DNA from: Lingula anatina
Taxonomy: Eukaryota; Animalia; Brachiopoda
Direction of reading: 5' to 3'
Assembly (NCBI GenBank): GCA_051362555.1
Contig: CM120644.1
Coordinates: 16,390,534 to 16,454,533 of the forward strand
DNA length: 64,000 nt
Below, piece after piece: positions 35,285 to 64,000 of the stretch. The position numbers and the translations under genes are program-made. The notes under the pieces are model-generated. The model had not been told where the DNA came from. It did not search any database and was given only the letters and a program-made list of their open reading frames with translations. The stretch's first letter is position 1; every line of letters starts with the position of its first letter.

Positions 35285-36144
35285 TATATGCACTTCGCCT
35301 GCGGCTCGACAACAACCTCATTATATTTCACATACAGCTCGGTGACTCGTATTGTATCTGTCACTTAATGTCATCTTTTATGAGACAGTGAAATGTGGTG
35401 TATAAGAACCAGGCTTTTTTCTTTTATTTACGTTAAAATATCCCCCATATTTAATTTACTGAGGATAGCAGGTTATAACAGTCAACAAAACCTGCAACCT
35501 TTAATTTTTATCTCTTAATTCCAGGACACGAGTATGCCAGAGATAACCTGGAGTTCTCGTCCCACCTGGAGCCTGATAATGAGGAGATAAAGGAGAAACT
35601 GGCACATGTTCTACAGCTGAGGCAATCTAGGGCCTGCACCGTAGGTTCCATTCTCTGCTGAAACATAAATTCTAAATTTAAATGGATATTTATGCTTTAA
35701 AATATTTTAGGTCAATTTGTTATCTTTTCAGTTTGATCCCTTAGAGGTTTACTGGATTAAATGTGTGTGTATGTGCTGTGTGCTCATGTACAGTTGGATC
35801 AGTTGTCAATTCTCCCTGTGTGCTATTATTGGATTAATTTTTACCAGTTATTATTGCACCTTTCATGCTGAAAATTGGTTTAAGTTAAACCAGTTGTGAA
35901 CAGGCCTTGTCTGCTATAAATGGATTAAGTTGGGCCAGTCATGAACACACCTTTTGTATTGCAGGCTCCATCCAACATGGGGGAGGAGAAGAAACTGAAC
36001 CCATTCCTGAGAACCAGTGAGGAGAAAATGTTGCAAATCTTGGGCTTTGAACAAAAACCAACAGTTGAGGAAAATTTTGCAGTCAGGGCCAAGGCCCTGG
36101 CAGAGATCAGAGAGAGGAAAGACAAGTTCAAATATAAATTGTAA
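30698..36144 (+). CDS. PNKD: PNKD-like probable hydrolase (glyoxalase II / metallo-beta-lactamase fold); exons 30698-30798, 31440-31555, 32178-32290, 32773-32831, 33478-33570, 34076-34239, 34783-34869, 35525-35640, 35965-36144
   Basis: GT-AG exons join in frame. Protein reads YFLYSRTRIGQYYFQRELSKAK..GHS, PIPMSEDNYAYLVID, THKHWDHSGGN (HxHxDH), TPGHTVGHVVYILDG, LFSGDHLFISGCGRMFEG, WPGHEYA, NPFLRT, colinear with human PNKD as recalled. The start ATG at 30698 precedes a hydrophobic segment and is the least certain part. Confidence 0.92.
30810..30957 (+). repeat. Exact tandem duplication (2 x 74 bp) at the start of PNKD intron 1
   Basis: TAGATCGATTTTCATTTGAATGCC...CTATTGTTATCA occurs twice. Confidence 0.9.
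34888..35056 (-). mobile_element. MITE family with CAGGGGCGGAT TIR, copy 3 (PNKD intron 7)
   Basis: Reverse-complement match to 19543-19709; flanks TTATT/TAATT. Confidence 0.85.
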
Positions 36145-38688: not shown

Positions 38689-42250
<3,562 letters not shown>

Positions 42251-43983: not shown

Positions 43984-46900
43984 ATGAGTGAGTTTACCAC
44001 CAGTTACCAGCCTCTCCCGGCCTCTGGGTATGAGGAAGATGAAGTGGACACCCCTCACATGGAGACTGATGTCTTAATACACGTTGTCCCTGAGGAGAGC
44101 AGCAAATGTAAGTTTTGAGATAAAAATAGTAAATATATAAATAACAAAGAAGAGGATGATGATGATGACAATCAGGGCTTAAGACATTTTTTTTCTCCAC
44201 TGGTCCTTCGGGTCAGTAAGGTCCAGTAAATATAACAAAGGTTACTTGGCGTATTAAATTTTATTTGTCCTTCAGGACAGCAGCCCCTGTGATTCACTGA
44301 CCCGAAATTGGTTTTCAGTGGCCCTGGGCAAATGGGCTACCTGTAATGTCAAACCCGGATAATGAAAATGATGATAGTGGTGGTGATGGTCGTAGTCACT
44401 TGTCATTTTTTGTTGAATTATTTGTCTTAACTTTCAATTTTTCAAACCTGTTATTTCCTTTCAGTGTCGTGATGATTAATATACATTATAGGTTGTCATG
44501 AATTAAAATTCTTATAATTAATTTAATCACAATGTAAACTTGCCTGAAGGGGATTGACAAAGTTTTTAAACTAAAATGGAAGTGAATGCAGCCTCAAAAG
44601 ATCCGTTGTTTTGTTTTTATTCAGCACGATGGAATCATATCGAGAATCTGGATGAGTTTTTTGCCAGGGTTTATCAGTATCATCAGAGGAATGGATTTTT
44701 CTGCATGGTGCTTGAAGATGTGCTGCAGCTGTTGTAAGTGACATCATGTGGGTTATGGCGTGTTCACAGCTGGTCTTAATTAAAACTAATATGTATGTCA
44801 TTGACAGCTTGAACACACAAAGACTACAAGTCTGTATATATATATTTATCTATATCTTGGTCTTTATAAGTCTCAGCTCTTGCCATAATTAAGTTAATTT
44901 TAGGTGGCCTGTTTCAGAAAACCGGTGAATCCCCTGCATAAACAGACCTTTTGAAAAGTAAAATTAAATATTTATGAAATCTGTTGTATTTCTTGTTCTT
45001 TCTGTTCTTTCTGCCCTCTTTCAATTTTTTTCCAGGATCAAACTTTGAAAAGTAATTTGGAAAAAAAATCGTGCTGTACCCTTTTCTGTAAAATGTTTCT
45101 TCTTTCCACTTAATTTTTTTTCTAAGATCAAATTTTCTTCTTAATTTCAGGCAATTTGTATTCGTGATACTTTTCTCATCATACCTGATAGAGTGCGTCA
45201 AGTATGACGTGGTGTTTGATGAGATATATCGTAACAATACACACGGTCACCACAAGGTCACCATAGCAGAGTCTGTTATACCACTAGACCAGTGTGTTAG
45301 TAGGTGAGTGAGATATGCCGTAACAGTACACAGCATAAGGTCAACTTAGCAGAGTCTGTTATATACCACTAGACCAGTGTGTTAGCAGGTGAGTGGCATT
45401 AGTTAATTTAAACTGGGTTTCTTAGAAGATGTTGTACACAAGTCACATATTGCATACTTATTATGGAGACCATCTGTTTTTGCCACAGACTGTAATTTAT
45501 TTATTTATTTATTTATTGGACTTAACTTTATGAGGGTTAATTCTTAGCAATTTGATATCTGAAAATTATCTACCGTACCCCTTATCTTCTTTGTTTTTAT
45601 GTGGGGTCTGCACTTCAGATTTACTTCATTAGAGTTATGTGCCCAGATTAAGCAAGGCCACTATACACAAGTACAAGGTCTACTGAACGAGGTTACAAAA
45701 TATTATACCAGTGATTAAAAATACATAACATTTCACTAATTATAAGATAGAGGAGAACTTAAGTCAGTCTCATAACTTGGAAAATGTTTTGACAGCTCTG
45801 TGTTTTTGTTCACAGTTCACTGTAGATGGGATGCATCATAACCCTCATGGAATCCTTTGATTTCAGTGTTCGGCCATTTGTTGCCATATGTCTCCTGGTG
45901 GCGGCAGTGTTTTGGGTCCTGAGGCTTATCAAGGTGGTCTACAATGTGCTCAAGTATTGGGAGATAAGAGCCTTCTACCTGACTGCTCTCAAAATTTCAG
46001 CAGTAAGTCTTTATAATAATGTAGATTGTGTAAATTAAGAAACTATAACAAATAAAAAAATACATTAAATTCCACATAACTTCAAAAAGAGTAGCTGAGG
46101 ATAATAGATACATAGCACTTATTAATAATCCAAATTTTTTTCAAAATCAAACTTTTCAATTTTTTCCATCAAAATGGAAGTTTTGTATTATGCAACCTTC
46201 TTGCCATAGATAATCTGTTATATATTATTATTATTATTATTATTATTTGTGTGTTCAAATGAGTTATCTTTATTTCAATTTATTGATCCTGAATGCATTT
46301 CTTTTTTCCGTATGATGAATTGTGCAATAAAATTGTTTTCTGTTCAAGGACGAGTTGCCTAATCTGACCTGGCACGAGGTACAGAAGAGGGTCGTAGAAG
46401 TCCAGCAAGAACAACAGATGTGTATACACAAGAAGGAGCTGACAGAACTAGGTCGGTAACGAAACGTGAAACAAAATGCTTTGGATATTGGCATTAAAAT
46501 GAATTTTCAGATAAGGTTGTAGTCATTCAAAGAAAAGAATTTTTTCAGTGCATATTTCTATCATTTTTCTCTCTTCTTTTTTCTAGTATTTATACATTTT
46601 TAAAACTGTTTAGTAAAGCACTCATAGGAAAGTGGAGTAAGCAGCAAGCTTTTAAGTTTGTCAGCTATTTTTGATTCGCAAATCATTTAGTGCACAGATC
46701 AACTTGCTTCTTAAAAGACTCATATTTGCTTGTAGACCTCTAATAACATTTAAGACACACATAGAACATTTTAATAGAAATCTTGTACTTATTTAGCATA
46801 TTCTTAATAATATGTTATTTGCTTCAGATATTTATAACAGAATTCTACGTTTCAAAAACTACCAAGTGGCAATGGTGAACAAATCTCTTTTACCCCTGAA

Positions 46901-49900
46901 ATATAGGATTCCTTTTGTAGGAGATTAGTAAGTACTTGGCTGCTTGAAAGAAGTCAAGTATTATTCTTTTATTATTGCAGAAACTTGCAATGATTTAAAT
47001 TTAATTTAGTTTATGGCAATTTTTATTGCTTATTGTTTTAAAATTTAATAAAATATATTTGACATAAAAATAATTAGCTAAAATTATACTTAATATTTGC
47101 TTTAAAGCATTGTGCTAAGGAACTGAATGAATTCTATTAGTCAGCTTCCAGTATAAGATAATTCTCATGGAAATTGAGCCTTTTTGTTTTGACTATATAT
47201 TATAGACTATATATTATACATATATATTTTTTTCTTGCAGTGTTTTCCTCTCTACTGGTCTTAAGTACAATTTGGAGATGATATTATTCTGTAAGTAAAT
47301 CTGAAAAGAACATGTGCATACACCCCATACTTCAGATTAAAAAGTCATCAGGAAATGAAAAAAATTACAGGTTGTCCAAAAGTTAGAGATGGAATTACAC
47401 ACACCCATTTGTGTAGCATGCTAACAATCTTAAAAGTTGGAAAGGTTTGTGTACAGTTATATAGAAGTTCTTAAAGGGATATCAGAGTTGTTTCCTATTT
47501 GTCAGTGTCTTAAAAAGAAATCAAATTCTTATGAACTTAGTGTAGAATTATTCTTTATTTTTAATTTCACTTTATTTTCAGGGGGCCCATGGGCTCCATT
47601 TGAGAACTATTGGCATTTAAAACAGGACTTCAAAAATTACCATAAAAGGAAAGAACTAGCTGACTAGTAAGTAAAATAGTTATATTGATTTATTGGGTTA
47701 CTGCAGTTTATGTTTATTGATTTAAAATGCATCATTGTACAATAATTAGCTGATCCTTGTGAGGAAATTATGTAAATTAATGTTTTAGACAAAGAAAAGA
47801 TATGTGTAATTTTGTTGTGTTATTTTTACTGAGCTTTTTCTCTCACAAAGGCTATAAAAAGTTACTAAGCAACATCCATTGTTATTTGCATAATTACAAA
47901 TTTTCAACAATGCTAAATATTCCTTTAAAGGAATGCAACAGTTAACTTGTTTGCTTTGTTATAAATACTAATTTTAACAGTAATTGTCTATTTCCTATGA
48001 AGTTTAGGATTTAGTGGTTCTCTGAACTTAACTGTTTGATAAAACTTGAGTGTAAAAACAGCTGATGAAATTCTTTGCTAGATCCAAAGATTTAGCCCTC
48101 AATAATGTTAAGTTCGACTTCTTTATTCCAGTCTTTCAAGGAGGCTAATAATCTTCAGTATACTCAATGCTTTGTTGTCTCCACTGATTTTTGTATGGCA
48201 GATTCTCACATATTTTTATACATATGCAGAGGTTATTGTTTTCCTCTTCAAAACAATCTTCAAGATACAATCTTCACCTTCAAAAATTATAGTCATTCTT
48301 CAAGATACAATCTTGAAAAATTGATTGTAAATGCAGAACACAGAAATGTTAAAAAATTGTGCTGTTCTGGGTTTTATGTTCCAAAAATCAAATGTTTTGC
48401 AAAGCAAAGTCTCAATTTTATTAATGTATCTTAAAGGTATAATAACTCTTCGTGTTGGCCAAAAAATTAATTTTCCTGGAGTAAACAACAATTTTCCCAT
48501 ATTTACCAATGGTTAATGAATCCATTTTTACATTCAATGTTAGTACCTGTTTTTTTTTTTTTTTTTGAAAAGTTTGGTTTTTTGTTAAAATCTCTTAAGA
48601 GATTATAACGAAGTACAGCCATCAATGGAGGTCACGTGATCTGAAGACAAGCTCAGATATCAGAATAATAGCTATAACTGCCGTTTTTGTGGTAAAACAG
48701 AATATATTATATTTCTATGAGTCGTTCACAATGTTTTTATGTGAAATATAGATATCATACGAAGAGTTATTATCCCTTTAATTGTTTATTTTGTTTTATT
48801 TTTACGTGTGGATAATCAACTTTTCTTTATGTCTCAGACAGTCTGAAGTGGGACCATCCCAGTTTGTGCCAAAAAACTTTTTGTCCTCTAATCCTTCGGG
48901 TTCACTAGACCTAAATTAAAGCACATACTAGACCTAACATAGTGACCCAAAGCAGACACAAATTTACAGAGTTTCACTGACCAAGATTCATTTAATAAAC
49001 TGGGAATTTGTGTGGGCCATTAATTAAGTCACAGAAGTTGAGGCTTTGCTTTTGCTCATTAAAACACCTAATCTCATATCCAAAAAAATTCAGCAATTAT
49101 CCTGAGCACGCACACCCCCTGCTTCTAAGAGTATAACATGAAAAAATAAAAAAATGAGTAAAATACTGAAATTATAACAGCACAGTTGATTACCAAAATG
49201 GATAAATTGTGATAATTCTTTCCTGTAGTGTTTCCCAAAGAATCCTCTGGCTAGGACTTGCCAACCTGATTCTCTCCCCATTGATCTTCCTGTGGCAGAT
49301 TCTTTATTCCTTCTTCAGATATGCAGAGGTAAGTAGGGATTGACGTGTTATATCTATTGTACATCCATTAGGAGGGGCAGAGGTACCTTGGTTTTGGCCT
49401 TGTACCACCAGTGTGAAAGCCAGGGGTACCTTGGTTTTGGCCTAGTACCACCAGTGTGAGGGCCAGGGGTACCTTGATTTTGGCCTTGTACCACCAATGT
49501 GAGGGCCAGAGGTACCTTAATTTTGGCCTTGTACCACCAGTGTGAGGGCCAGAGGTACCTTAATTTTGGCCTTGTACTACAAGTAGTACCTTTGTTTTAA
49601 TCTTGTACAACAATTGGAAGGCATGAAATTACCTTGCTTTAAACCATGTACAAACAGCAAGAAGGCTGAAGGTACCTTGGTTTTGAACCTGTACCACTTT
49701 TAGGGAGGCTTGAAATACCTTAGTTTTGCCAGGTACCTCCAGTGTGTGTATTGAAATTACCTTCAATTAATTTTGGCCTAAATTTGAACCATCTTCCTCA
49801 TAGTACTGGAAATAAAGCCCTGTTACAACCACCCCTCATTTTAACTTTATTGAAATTACATAGTAATATACCCTCATCTCAAGTGCATATAATATCAACT

Positions 49901-50572
49901 TGAATCTGCCAAGTAGTTATTGGATGTATATTTGAAGGCATGATGTTTGACTTACCGTTACATAGTATCTCTTTGTTTCCTTATAAATATTATAAGAAGT
50001 CAAACACATGAAAATTGTTCTTGAATGTTATACTGCATTGAATTTGTTACAATTAAAATGTCTTTACATATATATATATATATATGAGTTCGTAAAAGAG
50101 CATTTTGTAAATATGTTTTTAGAAATATTATATACATTGGTACATGCCACTACTTAAATATTTAATTATTTTATATCTTTTATGTCCTCAGATCATTAAG
50201 AGACAGCCTGGCAGTCTAGGAGCAAGGAGATGGTCCCTGTATGGGCGTCTGTACCTGAGGCATTTCAACGAGCTAGATCACGAGTTTGAGGCCCGTTTAA
50301 ATCGAGGCTACAAACCAGCCGAGGAATACATGAATATCTTTACTTCCCCTGTATTAGTTATTCTTGCCAAGTAAGTACAGTCAAGATCATAGCAAATATA
50401 ATATAATATAATTTACTGATGGTGAATCATTCAGGTGATAAATTTGGAAAAAAAATTAATGTAATTATGTTGATGTAATGCACTTTGAATGAAAAGATGT
50501 GTTCTCTATGAATGATAGATGGTTATAATTGTCTTTTTCAAAAAAAATTAAATTATTATTATTATTTAAATT

Positions 50573-50615
<43 letters not shown>

Positions 50616-51282
50616 TTTGTTGTGTGAAATGTGAGACTATATGTGATTAAGGATATTTTAAGCGGAGCCTTTGCATATTTTCAGGAATGTGGTGTTCTTT
50701 GCTGGTGCTGTGCTGGCCGTGCTGATCATCCTGACCCTGATAGATGAGGACACACTACAAGTAGAGAATATTCTGAGGATGATGACTATACTGGGAGCTG
50801 TGGTGGCTGTGTGTAGGGCTGTCATACCTGCTGAGGTACTGCAGTGCCTTATTATGTGTTTGAGTGTGTGTGTGTGTGTGTGTGTGGGGGGGGGGGGAGG
50901 GGGGGAGACACCCTCCAAGTAGAGAATATTCTGAGGATGATGACTATACTAGGAGCTTTGGTGGCTGTGTGTGGGGCTGTTATACCTGCTGAGGTACTAC
51001 AGTGGCTTATTGTGTTTGTGTGTGGGGGGGGGGGGGGGAGAAAACACCCTCCAAGTGGTGAATATACTGAGGACGATGACTATACTGGGAGCTGTGGTGG
51101 CTGTGTGTAGGGCTGTTATACCTGCTGAGGTAATGCAGTGGCTTGTGTATGTGGGGGGGGGGGGGGGGGGGGGGGCACCCTCCAAGTAGAGAATATCCTA
51201 AGGATGATGACTATACTGGGAGCTCTGGTGGCTGTGTGTAGGGATGTCATTTTGTCTGAGGTAATGCAGTGGCCTATTTAGC

Positions 51283-51316
<34 letters not shown>

Positions 51317-54300
51317 GGGGGGGGACATTCTCCAAGTGGAGAATATACTGAGGATGATGACTATACTGGGAGCTTTGTTTGCTGAGTGTAGGGCATTATT
51401 ACCACCTGAGGTAATGCAGTGACTTCGTTTGAATTAGTTTTAGCTAGGGTACTCTAAGTGAAGAATATACTGAGGTTGATTACATTACATAGCACTATAC
51501 ATAAGGGGCAGTTATCACTGAGCATGAGGCAGTCTTACCAGCTGAGTTCATGTTATCTAACGGTTCATTCAGCTGTTGGGTGGTGGTGGCAGTGACTGTG
51601 TAGGGGAAGGATGTAGGAAGGGATAGAGAAGCAGAGGGGAAGAATGGTAAGATGTTTTTGAGACAGCCATATTAGCAGAAGGAATGTAGTTCTGGGTGGT
51701 TCATTCAGAATTTAGGAAGGGAGGTAGCAGCAGGTGGTAAGGGCATTTAGTAAATAGAAAGTAAGAAGTGTTAAGAACAATAACGTGTTCAATATAGCCA
51801 TTTTGGGAAGGTTAAGATGACCATGTGTATTATGATAAAAATGTATTTAAAATACTATTTCTTTCTGTGATTCCAGCATATGGTGTTCTGTCCAGAGTTT
51901 CTGATGACCCACATCTTGAAGGAGGTCCATTACATCCCTGACTCCTGGAAAGGCAATGCTCACACTCACAAAGTCAGGCAGGAGTTTGCACAGCTGTTCC
52001 AGTACAAGGCTGTAAGTTATCAGTTATTATTTTTATTTATTTATTTATTGATGTATTTTTAAAAAAAGTTATTATCACACCCATAACCAGGAAGGAGTAA
52101 GTGAACAGTCTTAATATTATTTTGTATTTATTTATTCTTTTTGTTAAGTTTTTATGTACAGACACAGATGTGTCTGTACATATTGCCATCACCTGCGTCT
52201 GTCGTCGCCGTCGCCGATGGCGATGCCGATGGCGATGCCGGCGCCGTGCACTTTCCTTGTAAACACGATAAGTGGAGGGCAGTTTTACTTTTTGGCTTTA
52301 TATTTACAGAGCTGATGAATATTCATAAAACGCAGGTCAAGTTCGAAAATCAGCATGATCGGGCCATTATTGTAGAAGTTATGCTGTTTTTTCACTTTTC
52401 AGCATATTTTTCACATTTCCTCAGATTCAATTCTTAGGCATGTTAACAGTCTCATTATTAAACTAATAAGATACGTAAAAGTGTTTGTTTGACATTTCCT
52501 GCATCTTTACAACATTGTTAGTTGATTTTGTAAAAATGATGGTAAACTTGTTATCGTGTATTGTGTAATAAAGTTTCAAAAATGGAAATAAACTCATATC
52601 ATTGCAGTTTGTCAGATTCAATCATTCACTATGTTCAGACTCTCAGAATGGAAGAAATTGGACATTTAACACTGCTCTGTTGATATTTTTCCCATCTCAT
52701 CAATTTTCTTAGTTGATGATATAAAAATGGCAGTAAACTGTTAATTTTGTTTTATGTTAAAAATTGTTAAAAATGGAAAAAAAAACATTTCAGAACAGTG
52801 CTGTCTTGTTTTATTATCACACAGAGAGGCAGGGGAAGGGTTTGCACAGCCTTTCCAGTACAAGACTAATAACACTTTATTTATTTATTTATTTATTTTA
52901 TTCTTCAGCTCTATCTCCTGGAGGAGTTGATCAGCCCCCTGGTGACCCCCCTGATCCTCTGCTTCTCTATACGCCACAAGGCTTACGATATTGTCGACTT
53001 CTACAGAAACTTCACTGTAGAGGTCACTGGTGTCGGTGACGTCTGCTCATTTGCTCAGATGGACATAAGAAAACATGGCAATCCCCAGGTATGGAAGGAT
53101 ATTATCAGGCTTTTTTTTCACAACTTTGGAGGAATGTATAATGATTTGATTTTTTGAAGTGTTTGATAGCCAGATTATTGCATGCAGTGATTTAGTACAC
53201 TGTTCAAAATATTTTTAAAAAAAGTGGATTTTTCCTCCTTAAAACTTTATACTCTATATCCTGATTTTTGTGCTGGCTGCAATATGGTATTTGCTGGTTG
53301 GCAGACATGTTAAGAATCAGCCTGGGCAGCTCAAATTTTCACAAATTTAAAACAGCTGCAGCTGTAATTGCCAAAGCAAAAAAAGAAAAAAAAAATCACA
53401 TAGCTTTTTCTTCATTAGGGCAAAAGGCCCAGCGGTTGTTGCATGATGTAGATTTAAACATATTGGTGCAGAAGCTTTGTAATGTTATTTGGATTGGTGT
53501 CAGAATGTACTATGTAATTGTGAGGCTGTGAAAATGATAAACGTTAGTAAAGTAAAAATGTAAGAAAAAAGTTAACATTTGAAAATGGTGAGTAATTACC
53601 GTATTCCTAATTCCAGTGGGTAAAAGAAGAACAGACCCAGGCAGACCTGTACCACCAGGCTGAGGATGGGAAGGCTGAGCTGTCACTCATGCATTTTGCT
53701 GTAAGTTAAATGATAATATAATATAATATAATATAATATAATATAATATAATATAATTACACTGTCAGTTAGACTGCATTCAAGGCTTTTCCCAGCAAAT
53801 GTCCAGCTGTCACTTAGATGGCCGCCTGCATCACCAGATGGCGTATATTTTCACAGACAGCTGGATGGATTATGAATGTTTTGGAAAAATGATGGCTTGG
53901 ACTCCCTCAAATTTTGTAGGAAAAGTCAGGAGATAATTTTAGACAGCCATTAAGTTGGTAGATGATGCAAAACTCTGGCATTTGCTATTGATTTAATCCA
54001 CAAAATGAATACTTAATTAATTAGTGCACTTTTGATATTTAAAATAATTTGACATTTTTTATGGAATGTTCTGCTTTCAGCTCACCAATCCAGAATGGAA
54101 ACCACCAGAGAACTGCAGCGTGTTTCTGAACGACATCAAGGATCAGGCCGTCAATGACGCCAACACTGCAGTAGTGGCCCCTGGGGATAACGCCCTGTTT
54201 ACTTCTCTACACACCTTCTCTGCCCTTAGTCCAGGCGTGGTTAGTATTATTGTAATTAGACCCGTTATAGTTAAAGGTCTAATAAAAATTTTTGAAATGT

Positions 54301-54779
54301 ATCTCAAATTTGACATTTTTTCTTTACATTTATATGATTTGAAGTTTTATGTTTAATCAATCAGTAGCAGTATGCTAAAGCTGTTTCTTTCTTGAACTAA
54401 GCAATTATCCAAATATATGCTGAAATTACTTGGAGAATACTCTTAAGACTAACATTATTCGAGAATGTTTTAAATGTAGATATTTTTCCTTTCCTCCCCC
54501 CACAGTACAACAGCATCAACATCTCTAGTGTAGTCCCAGGACCATCCGGGATGGCATCGGCTCATCATAGCATGCGCCCCCTGGGGACCGTTCCTGGCCC
54601 TATGAGTCCCCCTGGTGGCAGTCACCTGAGGGGGGCTGGTGTGGCACATGCTGAGGGCCCACTACAGGGGAGTGGGAAGGGAATCCTGGCCAGTCTCCAC
54701 AGCTCTGGAGCTCTGTCTGGCAGTGCCACTGGGCTGGGTGAGTATCAGTGTGTGTGTGTGTGTAAGCATGTGTGTATAA

Positions 54780-54817
<38 letters not shown>

Positions 54818-55336
54818 AAATCTGCTGGCAAAGCCACTTGTCAAGGTATTAGTATCAAGGTGTCTATATAAATTATGTTTTTAACCCACTTTTACCAGAA
54901 ATGTGTTTATTTTAACGAACTTTTACAGGTGTGTTTTAGAGAGTATTTTAACTTATTCAGTAACTGTTTGGTATGGACGTGCAACTGTGGAGGAGAGGAA
55001 CAAGTTGGAAAAGATCGTCGAAACTGCAGGGATTGTAATTGGAACAGATCTAACTCCCGTCCATACTATATATCTAGACAGGACTAAAAAGAAAACATTA
55101 TCAATAATCACAGACAGTTCCCATCCAGCCCATACCCTTTTTAAATTTTTACCTAGCAATTCGAGACTCTTAGCTTTTAAGGGTAGTAAGCGATTTTTAA
55201 ATAGCTTTTATCCTTCGGCAGTAACTATTTTTAACTCTAACATGTAATTTTAATTTTCATTTTTTATATTTCAATGGCGCTACTACAGGGCAAAAGATTC
55301 CCGATTTTATACATTTGTATTTTATTGGCTTAATAA

Positions 55337-55368
<32 letters not shown>

Positions 55369-55676
55369 AGATTCTACTGGTCATTGAGGCCTAAATAACA
55401 TAAACACAATGTTTTCCGATGGATCAGTAAATGTTAAATGAGCAATAGAGAAACCAAAACTAATAAGTATGCAAGTAAACCTTTATATTTATATACACTA
55501 GAAAAGCACTCCGAGAGCGCAGACTTCCGCCAAGGCAGCAATTTTTTATTATTATTCATTATTGATTGATTATTGATCTGAATCATCACCAAAAACTAGT
55601 CATCTGTTCCTTAGCCCACTTCTGACAGTTCCTGAAAATTTCATCAAAATCGGTCCATAACTTGAGTTATGTTGAT

Positions 55677-55708
<32 letters not shown>

Positions 55709-56131
55709 AACAAACAGGGGTGAAAAAATAACCTCCTTGGCAGATGTAATGAGTATGTCTTTGTCTCCCTAGGTTCTGGTCCTACCAGTCTGGACACCGG
55801 TCACTTCCTGTCCAGTGAAGTCTCTCAAGAGCTGAGCTCCGCTGAAATGAGTTTCAGCGCCCTCTATATACATGAGCTCCACAGGCGCCGCAGACAGGGG
55901 CAACACAGATTAGAGTATCTGGACTTTGACGGTCGCCCCCATGTAGAGCTTCAGGAACTGGGCACGAGGTTGACCTTTGACCTTGACCCAATGCCAGGTC
56001 ACGGAGGGGTCAGAGGTCATATGTCAAATATAGTCGAGAGCCCCCAGGAGGAGAAAAGCGAGGAGGAGATGAGCAACGAAGATGCTATCACTTTTGTTTC
56101 ATTCGATGAGAGAGTCACCAAGTCCACGTGA
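43984..56131 (+). CDS. ATG9: Autophagy-related protein 9 (lipid scramblase); exons 43984-44107, 44625-44733, 45151-45303, 45867-46002, 46349-46451, 46828-46927, 47241-47291, 47582-47666, [48132-48231 or 49229-49328], 50192-50370, 50685-50835, 51877-52011, 52909-53088, 53617-53700, 54081-54239, 54506-54737, 55773-56131
   Basis: WNHIENLDEFFARVYQYHQRNGFFCM, DIYNRILRFKNYQVAMVNK, LGARRWSLYGRLYLRHFNELDHE..RLNRGYKPA, QLFQYKA, FTVEVTGVGDVCSFAQMD, QAEDGKAELSLMHFALTNPEWKPP; all introns GT-AG with consistent phases. Confidence 0.96.
48132..48231 (+). CDS. ATG9: ATG9 alternative exon 9a (duplicate of exon 49229-49328)
   Basis: ttattccag|...GCAGAG|gttatt; 100 nt; translates (Y)LSRRLIIFSILNALLSPLIFVWQILTYFYTYAE with the same length and phases as exon 9b. 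Confidence 0.8.
49382..49760 (+). repeat. 43-bp minisatellite just downstream of ATG9 exon 9b
   Basis: GGTACCTTGGTTTTGGCCTTGTACCACCAGTGTGAGGGCCAG(A/G) at 49382, 49425, 49468, 49511 and 49554, then degenerate copies. Confidence 0.9.
50836..51550 (+). repeat. Tandem copies of the 3' half of ATG9 exon 50685-50835 with its donor site
   Basis: Four clear copies and one degenerate copy of CAAGTAGAGAATATTCTGAGGATGATGACTATACTGGGAGCT...CTGAG|GTA, separated by (GT)n-polyG. Confidence 0.92.
52150..52400 (+). mobile_element. HINE/pearl-like non-autonomous element fragment in an ATG9 intron
   Basis: (GTC/GCCGAT)n tract followed by CACTTTCCTTGTAAACACGATAA and GGTCAAGTTCGAAAATCAGC, motifs recalled as typical of these elements. 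Confidence 0.55.
54850..55367 (+). mobile_element. 5'-truncated LINE (Rex1/Babar-like) with AATAAA and (ATT)n tail in the last ATG9 intron
   Basis: FYRCVLESILTYSVTVWYG..ERNKLEKIV..IITDSSHPAHTLFKFLPS..RFLNSFYPSAV*, followed by a 3' UTR and the tail. Confidence 0.88.
55497..55750 (-). mobile_element. Non-autonomous Helentron (same family as 14882-15134), ending about 20 nt before the last ATG9 exon
   Basis: CTAGAAAAGCACTCCGAGAGCGCAGAC..CCGCCAAGG, (GACA)n, AACCTCCTTGGCAGA. Confidence 0.8.
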
Positions 56132-63620: not shown

Positions 63621-64000
63621 CTAAAATGATTTCGCAATTGCAAAACTGATGACACCCGGGCTGACAAAGTTGTAGATACTTAAATGGTTGCAAAATTGTT
63701 GGAATAAAGAACTTTCGTCTGTACGATTTGGATCTTATGAACTTATTATATGACACATGGAGCCTCCACCCACCCCCCCTCGCGTGATTTCGCCACTGCA
63801 ATCAAATAAGTTTCTCAAAAAATGTGAAGATCTAACGCGGCCATGATTACCAAGGATAACTTTAAGCTTATCTGTCCGTTTGGCCGATTCGAACATAAGT
63901 GACGTAAGCGCAAACAAACTATGAATCCCCAGTACTGAAATTAACATTAAAGGGATAATAACTGTTACTTTTCGTACGAGATCCGTATTTCACAATAAAT

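Follow-up and report, generated by a model that had tools for sequence, protein, structure and literature searches.

A tandem duplicated exon encodes a second version of a proline-kinked membrane helix of ATG9A in the brachiopod Lingula anatina

Introduction

Human tandem duplicated exon substitutions, also described as homologous mutually exclusive exons, have been catalogued as 236 events, and their common form is a pair of homologous exons of the same length that encode one structural element (PMC9741552, PMC5740500). Membrane transport proteins are enriched in this class (PMC9741552, PMC5740500), 60% of the human clusters have lengths that are not divisible by three (PMC5740500), and human clusters usually pair one dominant exon with a restricted one (PMC5740500). 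In arthropod clusters, downstream docking sites as well as intron-exon pairings have been described (PMC6071210, PMC12962786, PMC11802352, PMC4691838). In the docking site/selector pairings described for Dscam1, 14-3-3zeta, Mhc and MRP1, a single downstream intronic site is complementary to each variant (PMC6071210).

ATG9 is the only membrane-spanning core autophagy protein (PMC10936676, PMC12743292). Vertebrates possess one ubiquitous and one tissue-restricted ATG9 as two genes, and structures of the human ATG9A and ATG9B scramblases have been determined (PDB 7JLO, 6WQZ, 8POE; PMC10936676, PMC11572220). Pro302 bends an ATG9A helix that is buried in the cytosolic leaflet (PMC11572220). Reentrant helix 1, which is probably the same helix, is packed onto the swapped TMH3-4 of the neighbouring subunit (PMC10936676) and shifts in the closed-to-open change, for which Tyr316 was used to mark the perpendicular cavity (PMC12743292).

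By title and start of the abstract, we found no paper on ATG9 with mutually exclusive or duplicated exons among the open-access papers listed, and a search for ATG9 with Lingula listed an oyster autophagy paper only. The main texts of PMC9741552 and PMC5740500 and one supplement of PMC8373072 make no mention of ATG9, and the residue terms are absent from bioRxiv 10.64898/2026.02.03.703515. Here, we analysed a stretch of 64,000 nucleotides from Lingula anatina (the window, to which all coordinates refer) in which an initial annotation had proposed a mutually exclusive exon pair in an ATG9 gene.

Two homologous exons in the Lingula ATG9A gene

The ATG9A gene spans 43984..56131 on the + strand and comprises 17 coding exons per isoform (812 aa). 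The 17-exon chain that we built in the window agrees with RefSeq XP_023932449.1, ATG9A of Lingula anatina, at 811 of 812 residues, and the two isoform proteins match Pfam ATG9 (PF04109) with 594 and 598.5 bits, a family that is also matched by the two exons under study. LSM12 (40041-41789, - strand) lies head to head with ATG9A at a distance of about 2 kb, and a hydroxyacylglutathione hydrolase-like gene is a further neighbour (35479-36141, + strand).

Between the constitutive exon 8 (47582..47666, ending in phase 2; RNA joints 47290>47582 and 47666>49229) and the constitutive exon 10 (50192..50370, starting in phase 0; placed by the exon chain against RefSeq and located outside the mapped RNA stretches) lie two homologous exons, 9a (48132..48231) and 9b (49229..49328), all on the + strand. 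As initially annotated, both are 100 nt long, bounded by AG and GT, run from phase 2 to 0 and are stop-free in frame +1. They are identical at 55 of 100 nt and at 17 of 33 residues, and 10 of the 17 residues in common are encoded by different codons, which bears out the earlier remark that shared residues are often coded differently. Differences at codon positions 1, 2 and 3 number 15, 8 and 22 of 33, respectively. The alignment of the two exons was better than 300 of 300 shuffles. Because the 300-nt flanks of 9a and 9b align no better than shuffles (23 and 69 of 300 were as good), and with synonymous sites saturated, the duplication is, judged from its sequence, old.

The annotated frameshift holds as well. 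Either exon alone yields 812 aa. Inclusion of both leads to a stop at 50197, after 355 residues and 1114 nt upstream of the last junction, and skipping of both creates a TAA at the 47666/50192 joint after 286 residues. As the last junction is over 1100 nt away from either stop, on its 3′ side, nonsense-mediated decay would be expected to clear these transcripts. In its anatomy, the pair conforms to homologous mutually exclusive exons: two tandem homologous copies of equal length and phases, of which either one alone restores the full frame and both or neither do not. It resembles the human class in a length not divisible by three, in mostly conservative changes and in having one default exon (PMC9741552, PMC5740500), and differs from it in that no conservation was found in other phyla and that 9a appears in a model record but in none of the RNA reads of the eight runs described below.

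The 9a donor (GTTATT) had been called weaker. It matches the U1 consensus at 6 of 9 positions, where the 9b donor matches at 8 of 9. Within this gene such a score is nothing exceptional, as 9 of the 15 other ATG9A donors score 6 or less.

RNA reads and protein records

Of nine RNA runs chosen by species label, eight runs from three studies, which carry no tissue information, were mapped after sampling about 6% of the reads of runs X1-X6 and 25% of X7-X8. The mapped stretches cover the exits of exon 8, exon 9a and the entry into 9b; the joints of exon 10 lie outside. The joint 47666>49229 was found in 15, 4, 9 and 4 reads of X1, X4, X7 and X5, respectively; in these runs there was no joint into 48132, depth was 0 over 48090-48261 and, with 9a itself at 0 reads, there was no 48231>49229 joint of 9a to 9b. 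In X2, X3, X6 and X8, mapped at 85% likeness, 9, 11, 10 and 14 reads leave exon 8 into the letters of 9b with an agreement of 1, and depth was 0 over 48102-48265. In total, exon 8 exits into 9b in 76 of 76 reads (32 joint reads and 44 loose ends), so that 9b is the major form, as had been suggested. The pooled one-sided 95% upper bound on the share of 9a is 3.9%; per run, with only 4-15 informative reads each, it is 18-53%. All 11 exonic variants that were checked from RNA reads are synonymous.

A search with the 9a peptide returned one protein, XP_023932449.1, whose 9a is identical to the window copy in all 33 residues; the protein differs at residue 592. Its protein cluster has three members, one with 9a alone and two with 9b alone. 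UPI000697774C equals XP_023932449.1 except for 9b in place of 9a and is presumably an earlier model of the same locus. XP_013399953.1 comes from a different scaffold, carries 9b and has four other residue differences; the two Lingula ATG9A entries, on two scaffolds and with four residue differences outside exon 9, are probably uncollapsed haplotypes. Databases therefore contain both either-or proteins, entered separately and not marked as isoforms. The proposal that two ATG9 isoforms are made is compatible with these records of either exon alone but was not borne out by the reads, none of which fell on 9a in the eight runs; the use of 9a in XP_023932449.1 belongs to a gene model that could be ab initio.

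The helix encoded by exon 9

The assignment of the exon pair to residues 286-318 of human ATG9A, the proline-kinked helix, was confirmed by PDB matches of 22.7 bits for 9a and 39.5 bits for 9b. Both copies retain P304 and Y318, the equivalents of human Pro302 and Tyr316. The 9a helix is not ATG9B-like by score (21.2 bits to ATG9B versus 22.7 to ATG9A). The Lingula model has the same fold as the human scramblases, and the model of the 9a protein matches the ATG9A structures 6WQZ and 7JLO. The AlphaFold2 models of the two isoforms resemble each other (pLDDT values across 281-320 of 94, 95, 87 and 74 versus 94, 95, 89 and 76), a likeness that is weakly informative: because the alignments are 9b-type (57 of 58 rows), the models do not discriminate between 9a and 9b.

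We compared both copies with 119 homologues, i.e., the best 120 of 940 matches minus the query. The canonical sequence is that of 9b, and 9a-like sequences occur in 0 of these 119. Exon 9a retains N299, P304, W309, Q310, F315 and Y318, which are present in 118-119 of the 119 homologues, and carries the alterations W294I, G296S, A298L, L300A, Y313T, S314Y and F316Y. Among these, W294I, G296S, Y313T and F316Y affect well-kept positions, which we counted against the reading of 9a as a restricted exon. Relative to the closest homologue among the best 120 of 940 matches, 9a has 12 changes and 9b has 6. The summed side-chain volumes over residues 292-316 are 3912 and 3917 cubic angstroms, given as a description only. 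The 9a helix would keep the kink and the pore-side residues and repack the hydrophobic face, and the repacked face may tune the trimer interface with the swapped TMH3-4 and hence the opening of the scramblase.

Selection on exon 9a

Between 9a and 9b, pS is 0.82 and pN is 0.33 (Fisher p about 1e-5). We performed two-lineage simulations in which 9b was constrained and 9a evolved either neutrally or with a given omega (16 settings, 1500 runs each). A neutral 9a produced the observed pS/pN in 0-3 of 1500 runs at each of the 16 settings, and an omega of 0.15-0.3 on 9a matched it in up to 192-459 of 1500 runs. Among 47,534 neutral mutants with 12-16 changes, 12,362 were stop-free, and 579 of these also left the membrane core free of new prolines and charged residues, as 9a does. 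The six retained residues were also kept by 21 of these 579, a count for which the six were picked with knowledge of 9a; in a fairer test that accepts any 6 of 7 near-invariant columns, approximately 6-12% of the stop-free neutral mutants pass.

The homologue profile score of 9a is 43, compared with 91-128 for 97 distinct homologues, and 5-11% of the stop-free neutral mutants (12-16 changes, d 0.15-0.3) do no worse than 9a. Judged by this score alone, the case for selection is weaker. Taken together, the pS and pN values, the simulations and the invariant residues that were kept uphold the claim of constraint at the protein level on both copies on the long-term scale, and long-term purifying selection on 9a is well supported, as judged from simulation. 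A dN/dS signal of this kind is also compatible with a recent silencing of 9a. The initial annotation had named two findings that together would speak against 9a: the absence of its junction reads, which is what we found in the eight runs sampled, and stops, frameshifts or neutral evolution, none of which we found.

Possible roles of exon 9a

The tandem duplicated exon is real, old and shaped by selection, and 9b is the default exon of Lingula ATG9A. The reading that we favour, with moderate confidence and as the most likely one, is that 9a is a regulated or restricted alternative that replaces 9b in a tissue or stage outside the sampled runs; an old tandem duplicate of the exon for the first proline-kinked membrane helix would be spliced in place of the default 9b.

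Its main rival, which we consider unlikely to be the correct account, holds that 9a worked for a long time as an alternative exon and was silenced recently, leaving an intact relic and only one form of the helix now. The complete absence of 9a among the 76 exits, at zero depth across eight runs from three studies, speaks for silencing, as do the many alterations at conserved positions, the low profile score, the donor that is weaker than that of 9b and a MITE-like element inserted 200 nt downstream of 9a. However, 9a has suffered no stop, indel or splice-site loss, and the RefSeq model uses it. Its 33 residues are also identical in the second haplotype, a weak argument, as only 1 of 812 residues differs there from the window, and the few informative reads per run from material without tissue labels leave room for restricted use.

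That 9a is instead a rare poison exon, whose inclusion next to 9b would send the transcript to decay and so reduce ATG9A levels, no 9a protein being made, is highly improbable. With the stop at 50197, such transcripts would be degraded, which would make them hard to see in poly(A) RNA. However, a poison exon has no need of constrained residues, and pN of 9a is far below pS and the invariant residues are kept, and the 9a to 9b joint was absent from the four runs in which joints were read. A never-used, neutrally decaying duplicate, for which the four partial copies of exon 11 arrayed in tandem within ATG9A offer a model and the lack of 9a expression in eight runs speaks, is largely refuted and hardly credible, as neutral simulations almost never yield the observed pS/pN or a stop-free, charge-free helix and as length and both splice sites are intact despite flanks that have diverged beyond alignment.

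A candidate docking site downstream of exon 9b

Two mechanisms of exclusion were ruled out. Steric exclusion applies to spacers under about 50-70 nt, and 9a and 9b are 997 nt apart; U2/U12 incompatibility does not apply either, as the donors GTTATT and GTAAGT differ from the U12 consensus and are U2-type.

A scan of four docking layouts pointed to 49876..49911 (+ strand), which is complementary to the 3′ ends of 9a and 9b. Here, a 10-nt block (49902-49911) and a 7-nt block (49884-49890), which adjoins it in antiparallel order, are Watson-Crick complements of stretches that are identical in 9a and 9b, and the five bases at 49876-49880 can pair over the donors of both exons. The 10-nt block is the sole complement on the + strand of the window of a 10-mer common to both exons. 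Predicted duplex energies are -25.9 kcal/mol for 9a and -25.2 kcal/mol for 9b. Of the synonymous positions, 0 of 4-5 differ between 9a and 9b inside the blocks and 10 of 11 differ outside. In shuffles of the three introns, the 10-mer occurred in 6 of 1000 and the two-block sum was reached in 0 of 1000, a statistic that was chosen after seeing the site; among 26 other chunks of the window, none reached this sum.

By energy, the site is not outstanding, being equalled by 7 of 150 shuffled sequences and by 15 of 51 control stretches, and the pairing is absent from the local minimum-energy fold. Both blocks also occur in 3 of 32 codings of other animals, and in 3 of 45 loci a single exon and the intron upstream of it attain the same two-block sum. 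A search for intronic selectors upstream of the exons gave no signal (15 of 20 shuffles as good), a plain inverted-repeat search brought out, in its 25 longest pairs, only the ends of the MITE-like element, and Rfam returned no match. We regard a function of the candidate site as tentative and a little on the doubtful side.

If functional, this single downstream intronic site may pair with only one exon at a time and so cover its 3′ end together with its donor. As would be expected of a docking site/selector system (PMC6071210), the candidate is complementary to an equivalent stretch of each variant, and the intron-exon balancer pairings described for Dscam1 (PMC12962786) are a precedent for pairing between intron and exon. 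Unlike in those systems, the partner stretches in Lingula lie inside coding exons and over their donors, and the pairing would mask rather than present the exon. The fold of 49229-49960 places a stretch near 49950 (49949-49955) opposite the 9b donor, and there is partial complementarity between 49918-49935 and 49353-49370. These pairings would compete with the docking pairing and are possibly due to chance.

Distribution in other animals

A metagenome scan returned 50 loci with this ATG9 exon, many of them near-identical. Because most loci have the same two intron borders, the exon is ancient. No second copy was found in the 49 loci with a full-length match, each being single-copy; 21 of these hold both flanking exons, and the 14 of the 21 that have introns on both sides, i.e., other-animal loci that span both flanking introns, likewise lack one. 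The isoform sets of scallop, oyster, amphioxus and mussel clusters contain no swap of this exon.

Searches with the 9a peptide, weak at 20 and 8 candidates, matched only the Lingula record. The top match of the representative search, P0123, is a repetitive ORF with no ATG9 match and was dropped. In P0124, a record of 1839 nt, residues 85-117 of an ORF form a peptide that is 61% identical to 9a and is preceded by R and followed by V, as expected for an AG/GT-bounded exon. It shares I294, F295, V308 and Y316 with 9a, residues that occur 0, 1, 4 and 0 times, respectively, in the 119 homologues. P0124 may hold an orthologue of 9a or, alternatively, the only version of this exon in a lineage that evolves fast. 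In the ESM Atlas, all ATG9 matches were below 0.9, and there was none for P0124.

A stronger reading, which we consider quite unlikely as a whole, would combine these elements: the trimer-interface helix of the ATG9 scramblase, encoded in Lingula by its only gene, would be splice-switched by a single intronic strand that pairs with one exon at a time, over its coding sequence and donor, so that the masked exon is left out, and the 9a type would be old and shared with other animals. If true, Lingula would have, at the level of splicing, a counterpart of the vertebrate ATG9A/ATG9B pair, varying one helix where vertebrates have two genes.

The event class is well known, and the case so far is one brachiopod. 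Its interest lies in the position of the helix, which probably lies against the swapped helices of the neighbouring subunit, at the site of trimer opening and closing (PMC10936676, PMC12743292). Expressed or not, 9a is a natural, selection-tested variant with 16 changes that informs on residues for scrambling and trimer motion; if expressed, it would be the first case in the literature searched in which exon swapping diversifies a core autophagy scramblase.

Repeats within the locus

The MITE-like insertion between 9a and 9b (48431..48781) is high-copy and incidental, with 23-nt inverted ends that start and finish in TTAA. Very many RNA reads fall on it, from other copies, and a related end lies at 63947-63999. 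Directly 3′ of 9b, a 43-nt tandem repeat occupies 49372-49780, with 5 good copies that decay further on. The 3′ half of ATG9A exon 11 recurs at 50875-51425 as four tandem copies of 136 nt with their GT donors; these are 83-92% identical to the exon, lack its own acceptor and include one with an in-frame stop, and they may serve as decoy donors. Exon 3 is followed at 45310-45390 by a short copy of its 3′ end, donor included, which is the third exon-end duplication in the ATG9A gene.
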